A DNA stretch of 38,759 nucleotides, from the sequence record NC_019705.1. One strand, given 5' to 3'. Under the pieces are notes generated by a model. The model was given only the letters and a program-made list of their open reading frames with translations. It was not told the origin of the DNA and did no database searches. A program made the position numbers and the translations under genes. This DNA is from Escherichia phage mEpX2. Positions within the stretch are counted from its first letter, which is position 1, and each line of letters opens with the position of its first letter. Below, piece after piece: positions 2,008 through 18,462 of this stretch.

Positions 2008-3281
2008 TGGAAGAACCTAAATACACGATTGACCTGCGAACCAATAACGGCTGGTGGGCAAGGCTGCAGTCCTGGTTTGTCGGCGGGCGTTTAGTCACCC
2101 CAAATCAGGGCTCACAGACGGGGCCTGTTTCGGCCCACGGACACCTGGGCGATTCATCCATTAACGATGAACGGATACTGCAAATTTCGACTGTGTGGCG
2201 CTGCGTGAGCCTGATTTCAACGCTCACGGCATGCTTACCGCTTGATGTCTTCGAAACAGACCAGAATGACAACCGTAAAAAAGTGGATTTGAGCAATCCA
2301 CTGGCGCGACTGCTGCGCTACTCACCGAATCAGTACATGACCGCCCAAGAATTCAGGGAGGCCATGACGATGCAGCTCTGTTTCTACGGTAACGCATATG
2401 CACTTGTGGACCGCAACAGCGCAGGTGACGTGATCAGCCTTCTCCCGCTTCAGTCTGCCAATATGGATGTGAAGCTCGTCGGAAAAAAAGTGGTTTATCG
2501 CTATCAACGCGACAGCGAATACGCCGAATTTTCGCAGAAAGAGATTTTTCACCTTAAAGGCTTCGGATTCACCGGGCTTGTAGGCCTGTCACCCATTGCT
2601 TTTGCCTGTAAATCGGCAGGTGTGGCAGTTGCGATGGAGGACCAGCAGCGAGATTTCTTTGCCAACGGCGCCAAGTCTCCGCAAATCCTCTCAACTGGCG
2701 AAAAAGTGCTAACTGAACAGCAGCGCTCCCAGGTCGAAGAGAACTTCAAAGAGATCGCCGGCGGCCCGGTAAAAAAACGCCTCTGGATTCTGGAAGCGGG
2801 TTTTTCTACATCGGCAATTGGCGTAACTCCGCAGGATGCCGAAATGATGGCGTCCCGAAAATTTCAGGTAAGTGAACTGGCGCGATTCTTTGGCGTACCG
2901 CCTCACCTTGTCGGCGACGTCGAGAAATCAACGAGCTGGGGATCGGGCATCGAGCAGCAGAATCTCGGCTTCCTGCAGTACACCCTGCAGCCCTATATCT
3001 CCAGGTGGGAAAACAGCATTCAGCGGTGGCTTATTCCTGCTAAGGATGTTGGCCGCATTCATGCTGAGCACAACCTCGACGGCCTGCTGAGGGGCGATTC
3101 GGCATCCCGCGCTGCCTTTATGAAGGCAATGGGAGAGGCAGGGCTACGCACCATCAACGAGATGCGACGAACGGACAACCTCCCGCCATTGCCGGGTGGC
3201 GATGTGGCAATGCGCCAGTCGCAATACGTGCCGATCACCGATTTAGGAACCAACAAAGAGCCCCGTAATAACGGGGCTTAA
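2004..3281 (+). CDS. portal protein (HK97 family)
   Basis: 425-aa ORF overlapping terL stop, followed by protease and capsid genes. Confidence 0.85.
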   Translation: MMEEPKYTIDLRTNNGWWARLQSWFVGGRLVTPNQGSQTGPVSAHGHLGDSSINDERILQISTVWRCVSLISTLTACLPLDVFETDQNDNRKKVDLSNPLARLLRYSPNQYMTAQEFREAMTMQLCFYGNAYALVDRNSAGDVISLLPLQSANMDVKLVGKKVVYRYQRDSEYAEFSQKEIFHLKGFGFTGLVGLSPIAFACKSAGVAVAMEDQQRDFFANGAKSPQILSTGEKVLTEQQRSQVEENFKEIAGGPVKKRLWILEAGFSTSAIGVTPQDAEMMASRKFQVSELARFFGVPPHLVGDVEKSTSWGSGIEQQNLGFLQYTLQPYISRWENSIQRWLIPAKDVGRIHAEHNLDGLLRGDSASRAAFMKAMGEAGLRTINEMRRTDNLPPLPGGDVAMRQSQYVPITDLGTNKEPRNNGA

Positions 3282-3286
3282 TTTTT

Positions 3287-3976
3287 ATGGGGGCCGTAAT
3301 GCCTGAAATCGTAAAAACGCTGTCCTTCGACGAGACAGAAATCAAATTCACCGGTGACGGTAAACAGGGGATTTTTGAAGGCTACGCCTCTGTTTTTAAT
3401 AACACCGATTCCGATGGCGACATCATTCTGCCCGGGGCGTTTAAAAACGCGCTGGCGAACCAGACCCGAAAAGTGGCGATGTTTTTTAACCACAGGACGT
3501 GGGAACTGCCGGTTGGCAAATGGGACAGCCTGGCTGAGGACGAAAAAGGCCTGTATGTGCGCGGTCAACTTACCCCAGGACACAGCGGCGCCGCTGACCT
3601 GAAAGCGGCAATGCAGCACGGTACGGTTGAAGGTATGTCGGTTGGCTTTTCCGTTTCGAAAGACGATTACACCATCATTCCAACAGGCCGCATTTTTAAG
3701 AATATCCAGGCTCTGCGCGAAATCAGCGTCTGCACTTTCCCCGCCAACGAACAGGCTGGCATCGCAGCCATGAAAAGTGTCGATGGCATTGAAACGATTC
3801 GTGATGTGGAGAACTGGCTGAGGGATTCAGTCGGCCTCACCAAATCACAGGCAGTTGGGCTAATTGCCCGGTTTAAGTCAGCGATTCGGAGCGAGTCCGA
3901 GGGCGACGGAAACGAAGCACAAATAAACGCTCTGCTTCAGAGCATCAAATCTTTCCCTTCTAACTTAGGTAAATAA
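3287..3976 (+). CDS. prohead maturation protease
   Basis: 229-aa ORF between portal and major capsid; HK97 gp4-like layout. Confidence 0.8.
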   Translation: MGAVMPEIVKTLSFDETEIKFTGDGKQGIFEGYASVFNNTDSDGDIILPGAFKNALANQTRKVAMFFNHRTWELPVGKWDSLAEDEKGLYVRGQLTPGHSGAADLKAAMQHGTVEGMSVGFSVSKDDYTIIPTGRIFKNIQALREISVCTFPANEQAGIAAMKSVDGIETIRDVENWLRDSVGLTKSQAVGLIARFKSAIRSESEGDGNEAQINALLQSIKSFPSNLGK

Positions 3977-3978
3977 TT

Positions 3979-5136
3979 ATGTCTGAACTCGCTCTCATTC
4001 AAAAAGCTATCGAAGAATCCCAGCAGAAAATGACCCAGCTTTTCGATGCGCAGAAAGCAGAAATCGAAAGCACAGGCCAGGTTTCCAAACAGTTGCAGTC
4101 CGACCTAATGAAAGTACAGGAAGAGCTGACCAAATCCGGCACTCGCCTCTTCGATCTGGAACAGAAACTGGCATCCGGCGCTGAGAATCCTGGTGAGAAG
4201 AAATCCTTCTCTGAACGGGCTGCTGAAGAGCTTATTAAGTCATGGGACGGTAAACAGGGCACCTTTGGCGCTAAAACGTTTAACAAGTCACTAGGCAGTG
4301 ACGCTGATTCGGCTGGCTCACTGATCCAGCCTATGCAGATCCCAGGCATCATCATGCCAGGCCTGCGCCGTCTTACCATTCGTGATCTGCTGGCTCAGGG
4401 CCGCACTTCCAGTAACGCTCTGGAATATGTGCGTGAAGAGGTGTTTACCAATAACGCCGACGTGGTGGCAGAGAAAGCACTGAAGCCAGAATCGGATATC
4501 ACCTTCAGCAAACAAACCGCGAACGTGAAGACCATCGCGCACTGGGTGCAGGCATCACGTCAGGTGATGGATGATGCGCCAATGCTTCAGTCCTACATTA
4601 ACAACCGCCTCATGTACGGCCTGGCACTGAAGGAAGAGGGCCAGCTGCTGAACGGCGACGGTACCGGGGATAACCTGGAAGGGCTGAACAAAGTGGCAAC
4701 CGCCTATGACACCTCGCTGAATGCCACCGGCGACACCCGCGCTGACATTATCGCTCACGCTATTTATCAGGTGACCGAGTCTGAGTTCAGCGCTTCCGGT
4801 ATCGTCCTGAACCCGCGCGACTGGCACAACATCGCGTTGCTGAAAGACAATGAAGGCCGCTATATCTTCGGTGGTCCTCAGGCATTCACCAGTAACATCA
4901 TGTGGGGCTTGCCAGTGGTTCCGACTAAGGCGCAGGCCGCCGGCACCTTTACCGTAGGCGGTTTCGATATGGCCTCACAGGTCTGGGATCGCATGGATGC
5001 CACCGTGGAAGTTAGCCGTGAAGACCGCGATAACTTCGTGAAAAACATGCTGACCATCCTGTGCGAAGAGCGTCTGGCGCTGGCGCATTATCGCCCGACA
5101 GCAATCATCAAGGGCACCTTCTCTTCTGGCTCATGA
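3979..5136 (+). CDS. major capsid protein (HK97 fold)
   Basis: 385-aa ORF with N-terminal coiled-coil delta-like domain, directly after protease. Confidence 0.9.
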   Translation: MSELALIQKAIEESQQKMTQLFDAQKAEIESTGQVSKQLQSDLMKVQEELTKSGTRLFDLEQKLASGAENPGEKKSFSERAAEELIKSWDGKQGTFGAKTFNKSLGSDADSAGSLIQPMQIPGIIMPGLRRLTIRDLLAQGRTSSNALEYVREEVFTNNADVVAEKALKPESDITFSKQTANVKTIAHWVQASRQVMDDAPMLQSYINNRLMYGLALKEEGQLLNGDGTGDNLEGLNKVATAYDTSLNATGDTRADIIAHAIYQVTESEFSASGIVLNPRDWHNIALLKDNEGRYIFGGPQAFTSNIMWGLPVVPTKAQAAGTFTVGGFDMASQVWDRMDATVEVSREDRDNFVKNMLTILCEERLALAHYRPTAIIKGTFSSGS

Positions 5137-8428: not shown

Positions 8429-10849
8429 ATGGCTTCCAAATCACTGGGCACGCTGACGATCGACCTGATTGCCAAAGTGGGCGGTTTTGTCTCAGGCCTC
8501 TCGCAGGCTGAGCGAGCTTCACAAAAATGGCGTAAGCAGGTAAAGGAGGATGCCGCTGCCGCTGCAGCTGCCATGACCGGATTCGCAACAGCAGTCGGGG
8601 CTGCAGCCATCGGAGCCGGAGTGGCGGGGTATAACCTGCTCAAAACCACTTCACGTCAGATTACCGAATCAGACCGCTGGGCAAAGTCACTTAACATGTC
8701 CACGCAGTCCCTGTTAGCCTGGCAATATGCTGCAGAAAAAGCAGGTGTTTCCGGCGATCAGATGGCCGATATCTTTAAAGATGTCGGAGACAAAATCGGT
8801 GATGCCGTTCTTAATAAATCTGGTGAGGCGGTCGGTGCGCTGGACGCTCTGGGTTTGTCGGCTAAGAAACTGGCCGGAGAATCTCCCGACAAGCAACTCC
8901 TGGCTATCAGCGACGCACTGGAGAAAGTTAAGTCCAACGCCGAGAAGACTACCATCCTGGAGAGTCTTGGTAATGACCTGTCAAAGATGCTGCCGCTCCT
9001 GGACAATGGCAGTGAAAAGCTGCGTCAGTATATGGATGCCGCGAAGAAGTTTGGTGTGGCGCCCGATGACGCAGATATTGAAAAGCTGGTCAGAGTCAAC
9101 GCCCTGTTTGAGGATATGGAGACGCAGGTCAACGGCGTCAAAATTGAACTTGCTGCAGGGCTCGCCAGCGTAGATTTGAGTGGGCTCCAGAAGTCTATTG
9201 GAGATATGGGGGATGTATTTAAAGACCCGGCTGTTATTCAGGGTCTGACTGATCTGGTTGGTGGGGTAGTGGACCTTGCCACCTGGCTGGTAAGGGTAGG
9301 AGCCGAGGCCGGAAAGCTGATAGACCAGTACAAAGGTGGGAGTTCGGTCGGCCTGAATGCCTCCATTCCAGAAATTGAACGGCGCATCAAGAACCTGAAT
9401 GCAGATCTCGATGATAAAGGCATACTGGCGAGTTTCAACAGAATAGGTATGGACGTATCCGGTAAGGAGGCCGAAAGGGCTGAGCTCCAGAGGCGACTGG
9501 CCTTTTTGAGAAACTCCCAATCTACTCTACCGGAAATAAAACTGCCCGAGCCAGTCAAAACAAACTATACCCTTGGCGCCGGGGAAACAAACGGTAAGCC
9601 GCAAAAAAATACCTCTGGTCAGAAACTGGATTCAGCGTTTAAAAGCGCTGAGCGCAGTTACATGCGTCAGATTGAGCTGATCGATACCACGGGCAAAAAA
9701 ACTGCTGTGGTGACCGAGCAGCAAAAACTGCAGTTCGATATAGCTGACGGCAAGTTGCAGGGGCTTAACGAAACCCAGAAGAAACGACTTGCGTCTCTGG
9801 CTCAGGAAGTTGATCGCCTTAATGCCGTCAAAAAAGCTAATGAAGAAAACGCGAAGGTAGCGGCGTTCGTGGCAAATCTGCAGGAGCAGAACGAGAATGC
9901 ACGTGCAGATTTGGGCGTGGATATTCAGGGGGCCGGACTCGGTGACAAGCAGCGTGAAAGGCTGAGGGAAAGGCTGAGTATAGAGCGCAGTTATCTCGAT
10001 CAGCAGCGCGATCTGCAAAAGCAGTATCAGTCAGGAGATATCAGCCAGACAGTTTATGACCGCGAAACCCAGGCATTAAAGGATGCGCAAGCTGAGAGGC
10101 TGGGCATCCAGGAGGATTATTACAGTCAAATTGATGCGCTGCAGTCTGACTGGGTGACTGGCGCCAGAGACGGTCTCGCTGACTGGGTAGATGATTCAAC
10201 TAACTATGCGACGCTGGCGGCGGACGCTATGAAAAGCGCGCTTTCCGGTATCAGCAGCAATATCGTCGACATGCTCAACGGCAATAAAGCGAGCTGGAAA
10301 GACTGGGGTGTCAGTGTTCTGAAAATCATCGAACAGGTGATGGTTAACATGATGATCGCCAATGCAGCCAGCTCGATAGGCTCATTGTTCGGTGGTGCCG
10401 CATCGTCTTCCGCCAGCAGCGGTACTGCGATTCAGTCCTACGGGGCGAGCCTGCAATTCAACGCCAAAGGCGGCGTTTACTCTTCTGCCGATCTCAGTCA
10501 GTACAGTAACTCTGTCGTCAGCTCTCCAACACTGTTTGCCTTTGCCAAAGGGGCCGGATTGATGGGGGAGGCTGGGCCGGAGGCTATTATGCCACTGACC
10601 CGCGCCGCTGACGGATCGCTGGGCGTGCGTGCTATGGGAATCTCAGGCTTAACACCGGGTGGTAGTAGTGCTCCTCAGGTCAGTATTCAGATTGATGGCA
10701 ATGGGAATACCCAGACTCAGGCTAGCGGTGGATATGAGCAATTCGGGCGGGAGGTAGGTAGTTTTGTTGATCGGCGATACCGCGAGTTGATAGGCCGTGA
10801 CCTTTCACCCGGTGGCGCGGTCTGGAATCTGGCAAAAGGAGGGCGGTGA
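8429..10849 (+). CDS. tail tape measure protein
   Basis: 806-aa ORF, alanine/glycine-rich and coiled-coil, after G/GT. Confidence 0.9.
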   Translation: MASKSLGTLTIDLIAKVGGFVSGLSQAERASQKWRKQVKEDAAAAAAAMTGFATAVGAAAIGAGVAGYNLLKTTSRQITESDRWAKSLNMSTQSLLAWQYAAEKAGVSGDQMADIFKDVGDKIGDAVLNKSGEAVGALDALGLSAKKLAGESPDKQLLAISDALEKVKSNAEKTTILESLGNDLSKMLPLLDNGSEKLRQYMDAAKKFGVAPDDADIEKLVRVNALFEDMETQVNGVKIELAAGLASVDLSGLQKSIGDMGDVFKDPAVIQGLTDLVGGVVDLATWLVRVGAEAGKLIDQYKGGSSVGLNASIPEIERRIKNLNADLDDKGILASFNRIGMDVSGKEAERAELQRRLAFLRNSQSTLPEIKLPEPVKTNYTLGAGETNGKPQKNTSGQKLDSAFKSAERSYMRQIELIDTTGKKTAVVTEQQKLQFDIADGKLQGLNETQKKRLASLAQEVDRLNAVKKANEENAKVAAFVANLQEQNENARADLGVDIQGAGLGDKQRERLRERLSIERSYLDQQRDLQKQYQSGDISQTVYDRETQALKDAQAERLGIQEDYYSQIDALQSDWVTGARDGLADWVDDSTNYATLAADAMKSALSGISSNIVDMLNGNKASWKDWGVSVLKIIEQVMVNMMIANAASSIGSLFGGAASSSASSGTAIQSYGASLQFNAKGGVYSSADLSQYSNSVVSSPTLFAFAKGAGLMGEAGPEAIMPLTRAADGSLGVRAMGISGLTPGGSSAPQVSIQIDGNGNTQTQASGGYEQFGREVGSFVDRRYRELIGRDLSPGGAVWNLAKGGR

Positions 10850-11187: not shown

Positions 11188-11939
11188 GTCTTAACGCAGA
11201 TTTTCAGAAGCTCGAACCTGGCGATGTGGTCAGGCTTTTCGAAGTGGATGGCACGGCATTTGGTACAGGTGATGTGCTGCGATTTCACAGCTACAGTCTT
11301 GCGCACTCTGAAGCCGAAATTATCGCTGCTGGCGGTGATGAAAATAAACTGCCAGCAAAATCTATCTGGTGGCAGGGTGAGGAGTATAAAGCGTGGCCAT
11401 GCCAGATTGAGGGGATCGAAGCTTCAACCTCGGGAAGTAGTGCCCAGCCAAAACTTTCGGTTGCTAACCTCGACAGTTCGATCACCGCGCTTTGCCTGGC
11501 TTACGACGATATGCTGCAGGCGAAGGTGACGATACATGACACCCTTGGTAAGTATCTCGATGCGAGAAACTTCACCGGAGGCAATCCGACAGCCGATCCG
11601 ACCCAGGAGAAGCTGAAGGTTTTCTACATCGATGCAAAGAGCAGTGAAACCAATGAAGTTGTTGAGTTCACACTATCCAGCCCTATGGATCTGCAGGGGC
11701 TGATGATACCTACCCGCCAGCTTCATTCTCTGTGCACATGGTGCATCCGGAACAAGTACCGAACCGGCGACGGCTGCGACTATGCCGGTACGCGCTATTT
11801 CGACAAAAACAACAACCAGGTAAGCGATCCGTCACTGGATGAATGCAACGGAACGCTGACGGCCTGCAAACTTCGGTTCGGTGAAAACAACGAACTCTCG
11901 TTTGGTGGGTTCCCGGGTACGTCGCTGATCAGGAGTTGA
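11184..11939 (+). CDS. minor tail protein L
   Basis: 251-aa ORF with C-terminal cysteine cluster like lambda gpL. Confidence 0.85.
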   Translation: MSLNADFQKLEPGDVVRLFEVDGTAFGTGDVLRFHSYSLAHSEAEIIAAGGDENKLPAKSIWWQGEEYKAWPCQIEGIEASTSGSSAQPKLSVANLDSSITALCLAYDDMLQAKVTIHDTLGKYLDARNFTGGNPTADPTQEKLKVFYIDAKSSETNEVVEFTLSSPMDLQGLMIPTRQLHSLCTWCIRNKYRTGDGCDYAGTRYFDKNNNQVSDPSLDECNGTLTACKLRFGENNELSFGGFPGTSLIRS

Positions 11940-11940
11940 T

Positions 11941-12651
11941 ATGCGTCAGAAAACCATCGATGCCATCATGGCGCATGCCGCTGCGGAATACCCGCGAGAG
12001 TGCTGCGGCGTGGTGGCGCAGAAAAGCCGGGTTGAGCGTTATTTCCCCTGCCGCAACCTTTCTGAAGAGCCGACAGAACATTTTCACCTTTCTCCCGAAG
12101 ACTACGCAGCTGCCGAAGACTGGGGGACGGTGGTAGCCATTGTTCACAGCCACCCTGACGCGACGACGCAGGCCAGCGAGCTTGATAAGGCGCAATGTGA
12201 TGCAACGCTGCTGCCCTGGCATATTGTGAGCTGGCCGGAGGGGGATTTACGCACCATCCAGCCGCGCGGAGAACTGCCACTGCTGGAGCGTCCGTTTGTG
12301 CTTGGACACTTCGACTGCTGGGGGCTGGTAATGAGCTATTTCCGGCAAACGCATGGTATCGAGCTCCACGATTACCGGGTGGATTATCCCTGGTGGGAAA
12401 ACGCCTATCCGGACAATTTTTATCAGGATTGCTGGTATGAATGCGGATTCCGTGAATTCGACGGACCACCGAAACCCGGTGATATGGTGATCATGCAGGT
12501 CCAGGCCGATAAGTGGAATCACGCGGGAATTCTGCTGGAGGGAAATATGCTGCTGCACCACCTGTACGGACATCTGAGCCAGCGCGTGCCGTATGGTGGC
12601 TACTGGCAGGAAAGGACGATGAAGATTCTACGTTACAAATCTCTGTGCTAA
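11941..12651 (+). CDS. tail assembly protein K (MPN/JAB + NlpC/P60-like)
   Basis: 236-aa ORF with HSHP metalloprotease-like motif and conserved Cys/His, lambda gpK-like. Confidence 0.85.
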   Translation: MRQKTIDAIMAHAAAEYPRECCGVVAQKSRVERYFPCRNLSEEPTEHFHLSPEDYAAAEDWGTVVAIVHSHPDATTQASELDKAQCDATLLPWHIVSWPEGDLRTIQPRGELPLLERPFVLGHFDCWGLVMSYFRQTHGIELHDYRVDYPWWENAYPDNFYQDCWYECGFREFDGPPKPGDMVIMQVQADKWNHAGILLEGNMLLHHLYGHLSQRVPYGGYWQERTMKILRYKSLC

Positions 12652-12680
12652 CCTTTTGCAAAACCAAAGGGGATAGGGAT

Positions 12681-13022
12681 ATGAAAAAAACATTATTGAC
12701 ACTTTCTTTGATAATCATGGCTGGTTGTTCGAGTATGCAGGATCTCCGGAAGGAACCAGCGTCAAATACTTTTCAATCGAAGAAACAAATTGACGCAGTA
12801 GCTGAATGCATACTCTCTGGCTGGCAAGAAGAAAGCCAAAAATATGGAAGCGTTTTTATTCAGCCTTATGACGGTGGTAAAACTGTATTTACACAATCTC
12901 AACTTGAGATGGTTGATTTAATATCGGACGGCGGAATTACCAAGATTGAATTCCGTCATCAAGGTGGGCTATTTGCTTATCGAATAAACAGCCGGATTAA
13001 AGTAATAGAACGCTGTATCTAA
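12681..13022 (+). CDS. lipoprotein (moron inserted between tail genes K and I)
   Basis: Signal peptide MKKTLLTLSLIIMAGC with lipobox; AT-rich relative to flanks; own SD; followed by terminator. Confidence 0.6.
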   Translation: MKKTLLTLSLIIMAGCSSMQDLRKEPASNTFQSKKQIDAVAECILSGWQEESQKYGSVFIQPYDGGKTVFTQSQLEMVDLISDGGITKIEFRHQGGLFAYRINSRIKVIERCI

Positions 13023-13032
13023 CCAAGACTTA

Positions 13033-13055
13033 ACCCGCTTCGGCGGGTTTTTTTA
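13033..13055 (+). terminator. intrinsic terminator
   Basis: ACCCGC-TTCG-GCGGGT hairpin plus TTTTTTT. Confidence 0.6.
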
Positions 13056-13065
13056 TGGTGAGAAT

Positions 13066-13671
13066 ATGAAAGAAGTAATGACAACAATTCAGCTCGGCGG
13101 AGTGTTAGGAAAGACATTCGGTAGAACCCATCAACGACTGATAGCGCGAACTGGTGAAGCTGCTATTGCTTTAAGTAAAACATTGCCCGGTTTCGAAAGT
13201 TTCATGATCAGCAGTAAACGTCGCGGATTAACTTTCGCGGTGTTCAAAGGGAAAAGAAATATTGCCGCAGATGAGATGGGTTTTCCCTCTGAAGGCGATG
13301 TAGTAAGGATTATGCCTGTAATTATCGGTAGTAAACGCGCTGGTCTTTTTCAGACGATATTAGGAGCAGTTTTGATAACTGCTGCAGTCTTTGTTTCTGG
13401 CGGTATTGGCGCTGCTTTCGCTGCTGGTGGATTGACGGGGTTTGCTGCTGCCACTGGTGCCTCGTTGGTCCTCGGTGGGGTTATTCAGCTGCTTTCACCG
13501 CAGCCATCAGGCATAGCCAGTAAACAAAGCGCAGATAACCGTGCATCGTATGCGTTTGGCGGGGTAACCAACACTGCAGCGCAAGGCTACCCGGTGCCTC
13601 TGCTTTATGGTAAGCGTCGAATCGGCGGAGCGATTATTTCTGCCGGAATTTATGTCGAAGATCAGCAGTAG
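13066..13671 (+). CDS. tail assembly protein I
   Basis: 201-aa ORF with ubiquitin-like N-terminus and glycine-rich hydrophobic C-terminus, lambda gpI-like. Confidence 0.8.
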   Translation: MKEVMTTIQLGGVLGKTFGRTHQRLIARTGEAAIALSKTLPGFESFMISSKRRGLTFAVFKGKRNIAADEMGFPSEGDVVRIMPVIIGSKRAGLFQTILGAVLITAAVFVSGGIGAAFAAGGLTGFAAATGASLVLGGVIQLLSPQPSGIASKQSADNRASYAFGGVTNTAAQGYPVPLLYGKRRIGGAIISAGIYVEDQQ

Positions 13672-13690
13672 ATAACTAACCTTTTTTCTG

Positions 13691-13712
13691 GCCACCTTCG
13701 GGTGGCTTTTTT
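13691..13712 (+). terminator. intrinsic terminator-like hairpin
   Basis: GCCACC-TTCG-GGTGGC followed by TTTTTT, between I and J. Confidence 0.5.
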
Positions 13713-13723
13713 ATGGGCGCAAT

Positions 13724-16700
13724 ATGGCTACAGATAAAGTGTTAAAAGGCCGCAAGGGCGGCAGCTCAAGTTCCCGAACTCCTACCGAACAGCCTGATGA
13801 TCTGCAATCTGTAGCGAAGGCAAAAATCCTCGTTGCGCTTGGGGAAGGTGAGTTTGCAGGGCAGCTCACCGGCAAAGATATCTACCTGGACGGAACAGCG
13901 CTGGAGAATGCTGACGGCTCCCAAAACTTCAGCGGGGTAACGTGGGAGTTTCGCGCGGGAACTCAGGCGCAAAAATATATTCAGGGTATTCCCGGTACCG
14001 AAAACGAGATCAGCGTAGGAACTGAGGTATCAAGTGCCACAGCCTGGACGCGCACGTTTACCAATACGCAGCTTTCAGCAGTTCGCCTGCGTCTTAAATG
14101 GCCCTCGCTTTTCAAACAGGAAGACGACGGCGATCTGGTGGGTTACTCGGTCAATTATGCGATTGACCTGCAGACGGACGGCGGCACATGGCAGACGGTA
14201 CTCAATACCAGCGTGACCGGCAAAACAACGTCTGGTTATGAGCGCAGCCACCGTATCGATTTACCGCAGGCTGGCAGCACATGGACAATACGTCTGCGTA
14301 AGATTACCTCTGACGCCAACAGCGCGAAAATCGGCGACACGATGATGCTGCAGAGCTTCACCGAGGTGATTGATGCCAAACTGCGCTACCCGAACACCGC
14401 GCTGCTCTACGTCGAATTCGACTCAAGCCAGTTCAACGGCTCTATTCCTCAAATTTCATGCGAACCGCGCGGCCGCGTTATCCGCGTTCCAGATACCTAC
14501 GACCCTGAAACCCGCACTTATAGCGGTACATGGACCGGTGCGTTTAAGTGGGCATGGACGGATAACCCTGCGTGGATTTTTTACGACCTGGTTGTTTCTG
14601 ACCGGTTTGGCCTCGGGCACCGTTTGACCGCTGCGAATATTGATAAATGGACTCTTTATCAGGTTGCTCAGTATTGTGATCAGATGGTACCAGACGGCAA
14701 AGGGGGCAACGGTACAGAACCACGCTATACCTGCAACGTGTACATTCAGGACCGGAACGACGCCTACACAGTCCTGCGTGATTTTGCCGCTATCTTCCGT
14801 GGCATGACCTACTGGGGCGGGGATCAGATTGTGGCCCTGGCTGACATGCCGCGCGATGTTGATTACAGCTATACGCGCGCTAACGTTGTTGGCGGTCGCT
14901 TCACCTATTCGAGCAGCACCACGAAAAGCCGCTACACCACAGCGCTGGTTTCATGGTCAGATCCGGGTAACGCTTATGCCGACGCAATGGAGCCGGTATT
15001 TGAGCAGGCGCTGGTGGCGCGATACGGCTTCAATCAGCTGGAAATGACAGCCATCGGCTGCACCAGGCAGTCAGAGGCGAACCGAAAGGGGCGCTGGGGT
15101 ATTCTCACCAATAACAAGGATCGCGTTGTTTCGTTTGATGTCGGGCTGGACGGAAACATTCCGCAGCCGGGCTACATCATCGCCGTGGCAGACGAGCTGC
15201 TTTCCGGAAAGGTTATGGGCGGCCGCATCAGCGCCGTTAACGGTCGCGTTATCAAACTTGACCGCGTAGCTGATGCAGCACCAGGTGATCGCCTTATTCT
15301 CAACCTTCCCTCCGGAGCGTCGCAGAGCAGGACCATTCAGGCCGTGAACGGGGAATCAGTCACAGTCACCACGGCATACAGTGAGACGCCACAGGCCGAA
15401 GCTGTTTGGGTGGTTGAATCTGACGAGCTTTACGCGCAGCAGTATCGTGTTGTCAGCGTTTCCGATAACAATGATGGCACTTTCTCGATTACCGGCGCAT
15501 GGCACGACCCGGATAAATATGCCCGTATCGATACCGGAGCCATCATTGACCAACGGCCGGTGAGCGTGATCCCGCCGGGCAACCAGTCGCCGCCTGCGAA
15601 TATCGTGATCAGCTCGTTTTCCGTGGTTCAGCAAAATATCAGCGTCGAAACAATGCGCGTGAGCTGGTACCAGGCGCAGAACGCTATCGCCTATGAAGCA
15701 CAATGGCGCCGCAACGACGGGAACTGGGTTAACGTGCCGCGCACCTCCACCACGTCATTCGACGTCCCGGGGATTTATGCCGGGCGCTACCTGGTGCGGG
15801 TGCGCGCAATCAATGCCGCAGAAATTTCATCCGGATGGGGCTATTCAGAAGAGAAAACGCTGACGGGTAAAGTGGGCAATCCACCTAAGCCGGTTGGCTT
15901 CATCGCTTCTGAAAATGTGGTTTTCGGCATCGAGCTGAACTGGGGATTCCCGGCGAATACCGACGACACGCTGAAGACGGAAATTCAGTACAGCCTGACC
16001 GGAACCGAGGACGATGCGATGCTGCTGGCCGATGTGCCTTATCCGCAGCGCAAATATCAGCAGATGGGCCTCAAGGCTGGGCAGATTTTCTGGTACCGCG
16101 CTCAGCTGGTGGACCGCAGCGGCAACGAATCAGGGTACACAGAATGGGTGCGAGGACAGGCCAGCATCGATGTTTCCGACATCACAGATGTGATCCTGGA
16201 GGACATGAAAGGCTCCGATACGTTCAAAGACCTGATCGAGAACGCTGTGGACAGCAATGAAAAAATTGCTGGCATGGCTGACGAAATCAAAAACCATGCC
16301 GACGAACTCGAGCAGCAGGCGAAAGACATCCAGGAAAACGCTGACGGGCTGGCCCAGGCCGAAGTGAAGATCGACGAGATTTCTGTGTCGATGGATGGCA
16401 TGACGGGAGGCGTGAAGAACTCGGCAATCGCGATTATCCAGAATGGGCTGGCGCAGGTTGTCAGTCGTCGTTCCCAGACCGCGACAAACGCAGGGAACAG
16501 CGCCAGCATTGACCGTATCGACACGACCATAGCCGACACCAGCTCGGCGGTTGCTCGCGCGCTGGTGACGCTGGATGCTTCAGCTGGTGGGAATATCTCC
16601 AACTCTACCGATCTCACTGAAACTCTGGCCGATTTCACGCAGGCATCGGCGACAAAAATTAACACCCTGACTGTTAAATCTGGCGAAAACAGTGCCGCGA

Positions 16701-17179
16701 TAAATGTCAACGCACAGGCTATCGCAGATGTAAACGGTAACCTAAGTGCGATGTACAACATCAAGGTTGGTGTCTCCAGCAATGGACAGTATTACGCCGC
16801 GGGGATGGGTATCGGCGTGGAGAATACGCCATCCGGCATGCAGTCGCAGGTTATCTTCCTGGCTGATCGCTTCGCCGTCACCACGGCAGCCGGAAATAGC
16901 GTGGCTTTGCCGTTTGTGATCCAGAATGGACAGACATTCATCCGGGCCAGTTTCATCCAGGACGGCACTATCAGCAACGCAAAGATTGGTAATTTTATCC
17001 AGTCGAACAATTATGTTGCTGGTTCTGCTGGCTGGAAGCTTGATAAAGGGGGGACGTTTGAGAACTACGGTTCGACTGCTGGTGAGGGAGCCATGAAACT
17101 GACAAATCAGACGATCAGCGTCAAAGATGGCAGTAATGTTCTTAGGGTGCAGGTTGGCCGATTAACGGGAGTATTCTGA
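13724..17179 (+). CDS. host specificity protein J (tail tip/central fiber)
   Basis: 1151-aa ORF following K and I, lambda gpJ-like size and order. Confidence 0.9.
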   Translation: MATDKVLKGRKGGSSSSRTPTEQPDDLQSVAKAKILVALGEGEFAGQLTGKDIYLDGTALENADGSQNFSGVTWEFRAGTQAQKYIQGIPGTENEISVGTEVSSATAWTRTFTNTQLSAVRLRLKWPSLFKQEDDGDLVGYSVNYAIDLQTDGGTWQTVLNTSVTGKTTSGYERSHRIDLPQAGSTWTIRLRKITSDANSAKIGDTMMLQSFTEVIDAKLRYPNTALLYVEFDSSQFNGSIPQISCEPRGRVIRVPDTYDPETRTYSGTWTGAFKWAWTDNPAWIFYDLVVSDRFGLGHRLTAANIDKWTLYQVAQYCDQMVPDGKGGNGTEPRYTCNVYIQDRNDAYTVLRDFAAIFRGMTYWGGDQIVALADMPRDVDYSYTRANVVGGRFTYSSSTTKSRYTTALVSWSDPGNAYADAMEPVFEQALVARYGFNQLEMTAIGCTRQSEANRKGRWGILTNNKDRVVSFDVGLDGNIPQPGYIIAVADELLSGKVMGGRISAVNGRVIKLDRVADAAPGDRLILNLPSGASQSRTIQAVNGESVTVTTAYSETPQAEAVWVVESDELYAQQYRVVSVSDNNDGTFSITGAWHDPDKYARIDTGAIIDQRPVSVIPPGNQSPPANIVISSFSVVQQNISVETMRVSWYQAQNAIAYEAQWRRNDGNWVNVPRTSTTSFDVPGIYAGRYLVRVRAINAAEISSGWGYSEEKTLTGKVGNPPKPVGFIASENVVFGIELNWGFPANTDDTLKTEIQYSLTGTEDDAMLLADVPYPQRKYQQMGLKAGQIFWYRAQLVDRSGNESGYTEWVRGQASIDVSDITDVILEDMKGSDTFKDLIENAVDSNEKIAGMADEIKNHADELEQQAKDIQENADGLAQAEVKIDEISVSMDGMTGGVKNSAIAIIQNGLAQVVSRRSQTATNAGNSASIDRIDTTIADTSSAVARALVTLDASAGGNISNSTDLTETLADFTQASATKINTLTVKSGENSAAINVNAQAIADVNGNLSAMYNIKVGVSSNGQYYAAGMGIGVENTPSGMQSQVIFLADRFAVTTAAGNSVALPFVIQNGQTFIRASFIQDGTISNAKIGNFIQSNNYVAGSAGWKLDKGGTFENYGSTAGEGAMKLTNQTISVKDGSNVLRVQVGRLTGVF

Positions 17180-18228: not shown

Positions 18229-18462
18229 ATGAAAAGGCTAATTATCTGCATAGCGGGCGCTTTAATGCTGTCTGGTTGCGCTGGTGTACTTGAGAAACAG
18301 AAACCGATTTGCAGCGGCACGGCATATATGGGTGGCCATGAGAATACCGTTATGATTTACGCCGTTCGAAAGCAAAACAACCAGACGCAATACCAGGCCG
18401 GATATCCCTTTAACTGGCGCTGGGTAAGTGCGAACACATTCACAAGCACGACATGTAAATAA
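18229..18462 (+). CDS. small outer-membrane lipoprotein, Cor-like superinfection exclusion candidate
   Basis: 77-aa ORF, signal peptide with lipobox LSGC; AT-rich upstream region; location after J as for cor genes of phi80/N15-type phages. Confidence 0.5.
   Translation: MKRLIICIAGALMLSGCAGVLEKQKPICSGTAYMGGHENTVMIYAVRKQNNQTQYQAGYPFNWRWVSANTFTSTTCK

Follow-up and report, generated by a model that had tools for sequence, protein, structure and literature searches.

The window analysed here is a stretch of 38,759 nucleotides (nt) that comprises essentially the whole genome of Escherichia phage mEpX2 (sequence record NC_019705.1), in whose tail region genes K and I are separated by a gap of 414 bp. 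The gap holds a small open reading frame (ORF) coding for a protein of 113 amino acids (aa), followed by an intrinsic terminator (Table 1). From K to I the sequence shows 100% identity to PV340544, and the 113-aa protein is encoded with the same sequence in mEpX2 and in phage HK140, where it is labelled "hypothetical protein". A first-pass annotation, made from the sequence alone, had described the ORF as an AT-rich lipoprotein moron inserted between two tail genes, with receptor masking or superinfection exclusion as candidate roles. The present analysis deals with the product of this gene, with the segment of the tail operon in which it travels and with the function that it may have at the cell envelope.

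Table 1. Features of the mEpX2 tail region around the K-I lipoprotein gene (positions are those of the window).
Feature	Position	Strand	Remarks
Gene H	8429-10849		Local order: H, M, L, K, lipoprotein ORF, I, J
Tail gene K	11941-12651	+	Pfam Prok-JAB 1.6e-19 (JAB/MPN), NLPC_P60 9.8e-22
Shine-Dalgarno-like sequence GGGGATAGGGA	12669-12679	+	GGGGA / AGGGA read in the sequence
Lipoprotein gene, 113 aa, PHROG_914 family	12681-13022	+	ATG 12681, TAA 13020-13022
Signal peptide, aa 1-15	12681-12725	+	Cys16 codon 12726-12728 (predicted lipid-modified)
Intrinsic terminator after the lipoprotein gene	13032-13055	+	Stem-loop 13032-13049, then T7
Tail gene I, N-terminal domain, aa 1-100	13066-13365	+	Low GC, co-inherited with the lipoprotein gene
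Tail gene I, hydrophobic helices and C-terminal plug part	13366-13671	+	Highly conserved; roles of the gpI domains from lambda gpI cryo-electron microscopy work (PMC11101478)
Second intrinsic terminator, I-J gap	13690-13713	+	-12.7 kcal/mol
Central tail fibre gene J	13724-17179	+	C-terminal receptor-binding part of phi80 type
cor, 77-aa lipoprotein gene	18229-18462	+	Annotation of PV340544, translation

The N-terminus of the encoded protein reads MKKTLLTLSLIIMAGC and then SS, with K2 and K3 forming the n-region, a hydrophobic core and the lipobox I-M-A-G-C ending in Cys16. With its charged n-region, hydrophobic core and lipobox the product has all the hallmarks of a bacterial lipoprotein and is predicted to be one, as the first-pass annotation had proposed from the MAGC motif. 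A lipobox is found in all 37 representatives of the PHROG_914 family to which the protein belongs, and Asp occupies position +2 in none of them. The +2 residue being Ser17 in mEpX2, and not Asp, the protein is predicted to be sorted to the outer membrane according to the rule valid in Enterobacterales. Its mature domain has 97 aa (96-112 aa across the 37 representatives), and Cys43 and Cys112 are invariant in the family alongside Cys16; a disulfide bond between these two residues would probably stabilise a mature alpha/beta domain facing the periplasm. The AlphaFold2 model has a mean predicted local distance difference test (pLDDT) score of 87.2, and the modelled fold is a generic TBP/KA1-like alpha/beta sandwich. 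Lipoproteins with a TBP-like or helix-grip-type fold include Flpp3 of Francisella (DUF3568) and the N-terminal domain of BamC, with which the identity is 9-15%; such scores are usual for proteins that have a generic fold in common, and they allow no transfer of function.

The protein matches the PHROG_914 profile with E=7.1e-37, residues 1-113 aligning to positions 1-118 of the 118 in the profile. The ratio of nonsynonymous to synonymous substitution rates (dN/dS) relative to a Kosakonia homologue is 0.03-0.06 (dS saturated). The full-length family match, the conservation and this purifying selection show that the ORF is a real gene. Longer database versions of 153-169 aa (P0001, P0004, P0008; window 12513-13022) use a GTG or other start located within K, in another frame, and are judged to be start-site artefacts, since conservation begins at the MKK of the 113-aa form. 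The leader of about 30 nt that precedes the ORF is also kept in distant homologues, and a similar one lies 5' of a 65%-identical Citrobacter homologue. That one is dealing with a chance or decaying ORF devoid of function could be argued from the uniformly "hypothetical" database labels and from the rarity of the exact mEpX2 allele, which occurs in 3 of 5426 complete E. coli genomes, but the conservation refutes this notion and leaves it a negligible probability: length, lipobox and the three cysteines are kept across the 37 representatives, the dN/dS values are low, the fold model is confident and family members are present in hundreds of contigs.

Scans of the lipoprotein against Pfam, NCBIfam and PADLOC gave only sub-threshold matches driven by the signal peptide, as did Pfam and NCBIfam scans of the 37 family members, and a profile search of the PDB found no match beyond the signal peptide of FlgP. 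The homology search suggested by the first-pass annotation thus provided a family, PHROG_914, but no functional homologue. Several candidate identities were considered and rejected. A match to phrog_6073 (Rz1-type o-spanins) covers residues 1-22 only (E=0.008), and the gene lies in the tail operon with Rz elsewhere in the genome. The name YcfL is attached to a single 62-aa fragment, and the Pfam matches included no family related to YcfL. An inhibitor of the NlpC/P60 domain of K is disfavoured, K being 92-96% identical across different cargo types with no co-variation. Finally, the Tai tail-assembly-interference systems are not described as exported, with no mention of a lipoprotein, and are mostly encoded upstream of packaging genes (PMC11364771).

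The first-pass annotation assumed that in lambda-type tail operons K is directly followed by I. This arrangement, which is also that of lambda itself, is found in N15 and mEp021, where K overlaps or abuts I, and in mEp237, which has a short K-I spacing without cargo; it does not hold for the HK97-like phages, nearly all of which carry cargo at this junction. Gp20 of HK022 is annotated as "moron gene product" and has a terminator just 5' of I, with the same sequence and terminator in HK97, HK446 and ECP1, while phiKO2 gp19 is annotated as "putative moron gene product". The occupants of the slot are diverse: a 74-aa membrane protein in the HK022 type, a different lipoprotein of 136 aa in mEp390, two lipoproteins in LMessi (the same pair in Fraca) and an opposite-strand Lom/Ail outer-membrane protein in a Providencia phage. 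The K-I junction is therefore an already annotated moron slot, and the mEpX2 gene is a tail-operon moron lipoprotein of a known class. In HK97 and HK022 a moron is defined as an additional transcription unit placed between conserved genes; the mEpX2 gene lies between genes that are adjacent in relatives, has its own factor-independent terminator and differs from its surroundings in base composition. HK022 gp20 and phiKO2 gp19 (Juhala et al. 2000; GenBank AF069308, AY374448) share with it the slot, the terminator before I and the low G+C content (GC), but the gp20 of HK022 and HK97 is an unrelated protein, and the annotations of gp20 and gp19 do not include co-transfer of the N-terminal domain of I, unlike the block described below for mEpX2.

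The proposed Shine-Dalgarno sequence and strong terminator of the gene are both present. The terminator following the ORF has a 7-bp G+C-rich stem, AACCCGC-UUCG-GCGGGUU with a UUCG loop, and then U7 (-11.8 kcal/mol), and the equivalent sites in HK97, HK446 and phiKO2 carry terminator annotations. The second terminator of the mEpX2 tail region, in the I-J gap (GGCCACCUUCGGGUGGC followed by U6), has no cargo gene before it. Its sequence hardly differs from that of the terminator between K and I in mEp390 and resembles the HK022/HK97 one; in all of these, TTTTTTATGG and the following tail gene come next. The I-J gap of HK022/HK97 holds the morons gp22 and gp23. Such terminators may be shared recombination boundaries or relics of lost cargo.

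The family to which the lipoprotein belongs is widely distributed. A profile search of 1.8 billion representatives retrieved 97 clusters at E<1e-3. Every database name seen for the family is "hypothetical protein" or "lipoprotein", and its members range from Enterobacterales (Salmonella, Enterobacter, Citrobacter, Kluyvera, E. coli, Klebsiella, Serratia) to prophages of Pseudomonas aeruginosa; the Pseudomonas aeruginosa type is present in 279 collection blocks and the Citrobacter type in 471. The family gene almost always lies 46-75 bp upstream of I. Homologues with 38-78% identity occupy the position between K and I in prophages of Klebsiella, Kosakonia, Serratia, Photorhabdus and Acerihabitans, and distant members (25-35% identity), the Pseudomonas aeruginosa and Citrobacter types among them, do so in tail modules whose K proteins are only 34-47% identical. 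All loci of distant members with resolvable flanks fit this position, P0066 excepted; two exceptions in position were noted, one family member standing downstream of a tail-fibre assembly gene and one beside a type VI secretion cluster (see below). PhiKO2 gp19 and its equivalents in Fraca and LMessi are 111-aa lipoproteins with 30% identity over 96 aa, the same cysteine pattern and a C-terminal C-[IL], and they look like still more distant members. The comparison of related phages for presence or absence, recommended in the first-pass annotation, accordingly has a mixed outcome, the gene being absent from N15, mEp237 and mEp021 and present from Enterobacterales to P. aeruginosa. It is an accessory gene with its own terminator that related tail operons lack, but it represents a widespread family in a known slot and no one-off insertion. 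Conservation beside K and I as a structural component had been named as the observation that would speak against cargo; the gene does keep its place upstream of I across divergent tails, but the predicted lipoprotein signal excludes a role as a structural component of the virion.

Where additional cargo is found in this part of the operon it always lies between K and the lipoprotein gene, never between the lipoprotein gene and I, and the lipoprotein gene stays 46-61 bp from I. The K-lipoprotein junction is in this respect a hot spot for further cargo within the tail operon, all of it inserted upstream of the lipoprotein gene. In Citrobacter freundii loci (L042-L046, positions 2691-4886) the cargo is a block with an Arc repressor and a Bro-N antirepressor. 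In two other loci it consists of a 4.3-kb block that encodes an S24 repressor and an antirepressor of the P22 type (L127, 1705-5940) and of two small ORFs, one with a weak DUF6864 match (L037, 4211-4956).

The base composition of the mEpX2 gene is indeed lower in GC than its flanks, as first noticed: 38.6% (33% at third codon positions, GC3) against 56% in K (GC3 64%) and 55% in J. The low GC extends past the ORF, on the left into the last 30 nt of K (about 10 codons, 33%) and on the right into the N-terminal domain of I, whose first ~100 codons have 43% GC and a GC3 of 35%, compared with 54% in the C-terminal half of I. The lipoprotein gene and the I N-domain together lie 10-20 GC points below K, the C-terminal half of I and J in 12 of 12 homologous loci, among which are Pseudomonas-type loci of 62-64% GC. 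In cargo-less N15 and mEp021, the two examined, the I N-domain has a GC like that of its flanks, and it is low in phages with any cargo. Because the first half of an essential tail gene shares the low GC in every one of the 12 loci, AT-richness is no evidence of recent acquisition, and this part of the first-pass argument has to be abandoned; low GC is a long-standing property of the block formed by the lipoprotein gene and the I N-domain.

Comparison with related phages outlines the same block. Relative to HK140, nucleotide identity is 100% from ~12601 to ~13320, with a patchwork of 78-100% upstream in K and 81-87% over 13321-13440. Relative to HK022, the identity in K is 95-100% over 12241-12400 and 12541-12600 and 78-83% between these segments; divergence from HK022/HK97 starts at ~12629, that is, in the last ~8 codons of K, no homology exists over the ORF, identity is 51-73% over the first ~100 codons of I, and it reaches 100% from 13441 onwards. 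At the protein level the I proteins of HK022 and mEpX2 share 52-68% identity in their N-terminal ~100 residues and 100% in the C-terminal ~100, the junction lying where the N-domain of I gives way to its hydrophobic helices. The C-terminal half of I thus appears as the right-hand recombination anchor and the 3' end of K as the other conserved anchor, and from these alignments the moving unit is an AT-rich mosaic block made of the last K codons, the lipoprotein gene and the I N-domain. When IMG/VR was scanned for the I N-domain, 38 loci were obtained at >=83% identity, 35 of them with upstream sequence, and in 34 of these 35 a lipoprotein >=83% identical is encoded 46-49 bp upstream of I. The lone exception is locus L063 (IMGVR_UViG_2922317101_000004, 1092-2960), in which the I N-domain is 97% identical and an Arc-like gene and a 326-aa IS5-type transposase, with no lipoprotein gene, precede I; this suggests that the gene was lost there through insertion of the insertion sequence or through deletion.

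Two further observations concern other lipoproteins in the same slot. A second junction is located at the lipobox: mEp390 (L006, 990-1095) is ~95% identical in nucleotides to window positions 12629-12731, with the identity extending to about 12720, so that it shares the K end, the leader and the signal-peptide codons, and after the lipobox Cys-Ser it has an unrelated mature domain. The mosaic junction thus separates the signal peptide from the mature domain. In most of the IMG/VR loci L085-L126, whose I N-domains are 64-68% identical, the K-I slot holds a lipoprotein related to that of mEp390 (30-80% identity). A lipoprotein gene before I seems to be the rule in lambda-like tails of this type, and the families that occupy this place, at least two in number, are apparently unrelated.

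The content of the slot can be compared with receptor specificity. The last 252 aa of mEpX2 J are 100% identical to those of HK446, 99.6% to mEp234, 99.2% to phi80, 92% to mEp237 and 86% to HK140; the slot carries the unrelated gp20 membrane protein in HK446 and mEp234, is empty in mEp237 and contains the identical lipoprotein in HK140. Judging from these sequences, what the slot carries is not linked to the receptor-binding part of J, which is of the phi80/FhuA type. The genome carries, in addition, cor, annotated as coding for a superinfection-exclusion protein and located downstream of J and two small ORFs, so that mEpX2 possesses two unrelated tail-region lipoproteins; BLASTP of the K-I lipoprotein against the phage's own Cor gave no match even at E<100, nor was there any BLASTP similarity to Lpp021 of mEp021, the product of a 72-aa gene after J. 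A well-known lipoprotein of this kind is Llp of phage T5, a small protein of the inner leaflet of the outer membrane that blocks FhuA, is encoded beside tail-tip or receptor-binding genes and mediates superinfection exclusion. No sequence or fold similarity between T5 Llp and the mEpX2 lipoprotein was found, the PDB search covering Llp if it is deposited there.

Receptor masking, one of the roles put forward in the first-pass annotation, would here mean that the lipoprotein binds and inactivates the outer-membrane receptor used by the phage itself (FhuA, given the phi80 type of J), as Cor and T5 Llp do. It would agree with the paradigm of tail-region lipoproteins established with Cor (PMC3594210) and with Lpp021/Lpp010 of the mEpimmI phages, for which exclusion was shown by plasmid expression (PMC11893012). 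Cor (phi80, N15, HK022, mEp167) and the mEpimmI Lpp proteins are likewise phage lipoproteins from the tail region and exclude at the outer membrane (PMC3594210, PMC11893012), but they have 72-77 aa instead of 113 aa, are encoded downstream of J and not upstream of I, and track receptor type. Receptor masking by the K-I lipoprotein is here considered improbable, given the lack of co-variation with the J receptor-binding end (HK446, mEp234, mEp237, HK140), the presence of Cor in the same genome, the lack of similarity to Cor, Lpp021 or any PDB chain (Llp being covered if deposited) and the wide differences in receptors among the hosts of the family.

The explanation that we favour, with a probability of roughly 0.45, is that the gene product is an accessory lipoprotein, anchored in the outer membrane and facing the periplasm, which travels with the I N-domain and would block the entry of lambda-like phages after receptor binding. 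The lipoprotein would be held in the outer membrane with its 97-residue domain directed towards the periplasm, and incoming lambda-like phages would be blocked at a step subsequent to receptor binding, possible targets being the formation of a channel in the outer membrane or the periplasmic passage of ejected tail-tip proteins. The lysogen or infected cell would thereby be protected, and progeny virions might possibly be spared wasted ejection on cell debris. A function in the envelope and in exclusion is suggested by the slot itself, which in relatives holds membrane, lipoprotein and outer-membrane cargo, and by the fact that phage-excluding lipoproteins from tail regions are an established class. 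As to the step affected, the masking of FhuA is already provided for by Cor, which makes it a less likely function. In lambda, gpI plugs the tail tip as a trimer. Once the receptor is bound, the two hydrophobic helices of gpI are proposed to insert into the outer membrane, and its N-domain, which the structures do not resolve, is set free below the tip (PMC11101478, PMC12617516). The site of this release is the compartment of an inner-leaflet outer-membrane lipoprotein, which makes a post-adsorption block more attractive than masking of FhuA. HK97 gp15, a tail-operon moron from the group to which mEpX2 belongs, causes an exclusion that depends on the incoming tail and not on the receptor (PMC3594210), and in this respect it sets a precedent for a post-adsorption block by the mEpX2 lipoprotein, although gp15 is an inner-membrane protein of unrelated sequence encoded between the tail chaperone and tape-measure genes.

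A more specific form of this explanation takes the I N-domain of the incoming phage, released at the outer membrane or in the periplasm, as the very target of exclusion, the cognate lipoprotein and I N-domain being kept as a matched pair and escape being achieved by swapping the whole cassette. It would explain the fixed position beside I from Enterobacterales to Pseudomonas, the junction at the domain boundary of I and the shared AT-richness, but is regarded as very doubtful.

A post-adsorption block has several observations against it. No significant functional homologue emerged from the Pfam, NCBIfam, PADLOC and PDB sequence searches, and with Cor already present a second exclusion function is not required. 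Linkage alone can produce the co-inheritance with the I N-domain, the two being ~47 bp apart and the anchors being conserved sequences. In HK022 and Fraca, I N-domains that resemble each other (as judged by eye from an alignment; each is 60-62% identical to that of mEpX2) go with different cargo. Nor did a sigma-70 consensus scan of 11900-13800 detect a promoter upstream of the lipoprotein gene that would point to expression in the lysogen. In a lenient scan the best candidate was a weak extended -10 element, TGcTAACCT (12646-12654), overlapping the K stop codon, and in a Citrobacter locus where 114 bp of spacer precede the lipoprotein gene a marginal TTGTCA-N15-TATTCT could be seen by eye that the consensus scan did not report. 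Last, a 45%-identical homologue in Edaphovirga cremea (NZ_QOVA01000002; L014, 421-5342) lies outside any prophage, beside a type VI secretion system (T6SS) cluster; a tssE-like gene, tssC, tssB, hcp and two small membrane ORFs immediately precede it, and a LysR regulator follows.

The question of expression bears on the possibility that the protein is a lytic-cycle helper, made only from the late operon and modifying the envelope late, for instance by preventing progeny from triggering on debris or by aiding release. In lambdoid late operons Q-modified polymerase reads through terminators. Since I and J, both essential, lie beyond the lipoprotein gene in the late tail operon, such polymerase must traverse both the gene and its terminator, and from established lambdoid biology the late phase of lytic growth, at the least, would see the lipoprotein produced. 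The location inside a Q-dependent operon with no independent promoter detected is what would be expected of a lytic helper, and a progeny-protecting role is known for T5 Llp. On the other hand, a strong terminator placed right after the gene makes most sense with some non-antiterminated transcription: it stops only unmodified polymerase, which hints at some transcription in the lysogen. A purely lytic role is taken to be decidedly unlikely, even though it overlaps mechanistically with the post-adsorption block proposed above and is inseparable from it by sequence alone.

The E. cremea homologue, in turn, occupies after tssB, tssC and hcp a typical effector/immunity position, and this raises the possibility of a lysogenic-conversion factor of benefit to the host, such as an orphan periplasmic immunity protein against T6SS or other cell-wall toxins, or a Bor-like surface or virulence factor. 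Morons often bring host-fitness genes (PMC3594210), and the lipoprotein has a weak match to NF045617, "putative T6SS immunity periplasmic lipoprotein" (E=0.082, aa 2-74), as do 6 of the 37 family members (best E 0.0077). The score, however, is 13 bits against a curated cut-off of 43, part of it being owed to the signal peptide. A T6SS context was seen in only 1 of >60 loci examined and nowhere in the mEpX2 window. Furthermore, a gene of generic benefit is not expected to hold a fixed place beside I across Enterobacterales and Pseudomonas, and a host-directed role is accordingly seen as unlikely.

If the block of entry after receptor binding were confirmed, a widespread family would join the short list of phage lipoproteins engaged in phage-phage conflict at the cell envelope. 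The more useful finding is the structural one, that the cargo and the N-terminal domain of I, an essential tail-tip protein, move as one unit. For annotation, this case advises caution, since low GC and a flanking terminator alone do not mark a recent insertion here. The block itself offers a testable handle on the role of the gpI N-domain in infection and on the matching between morons and tail proteins.

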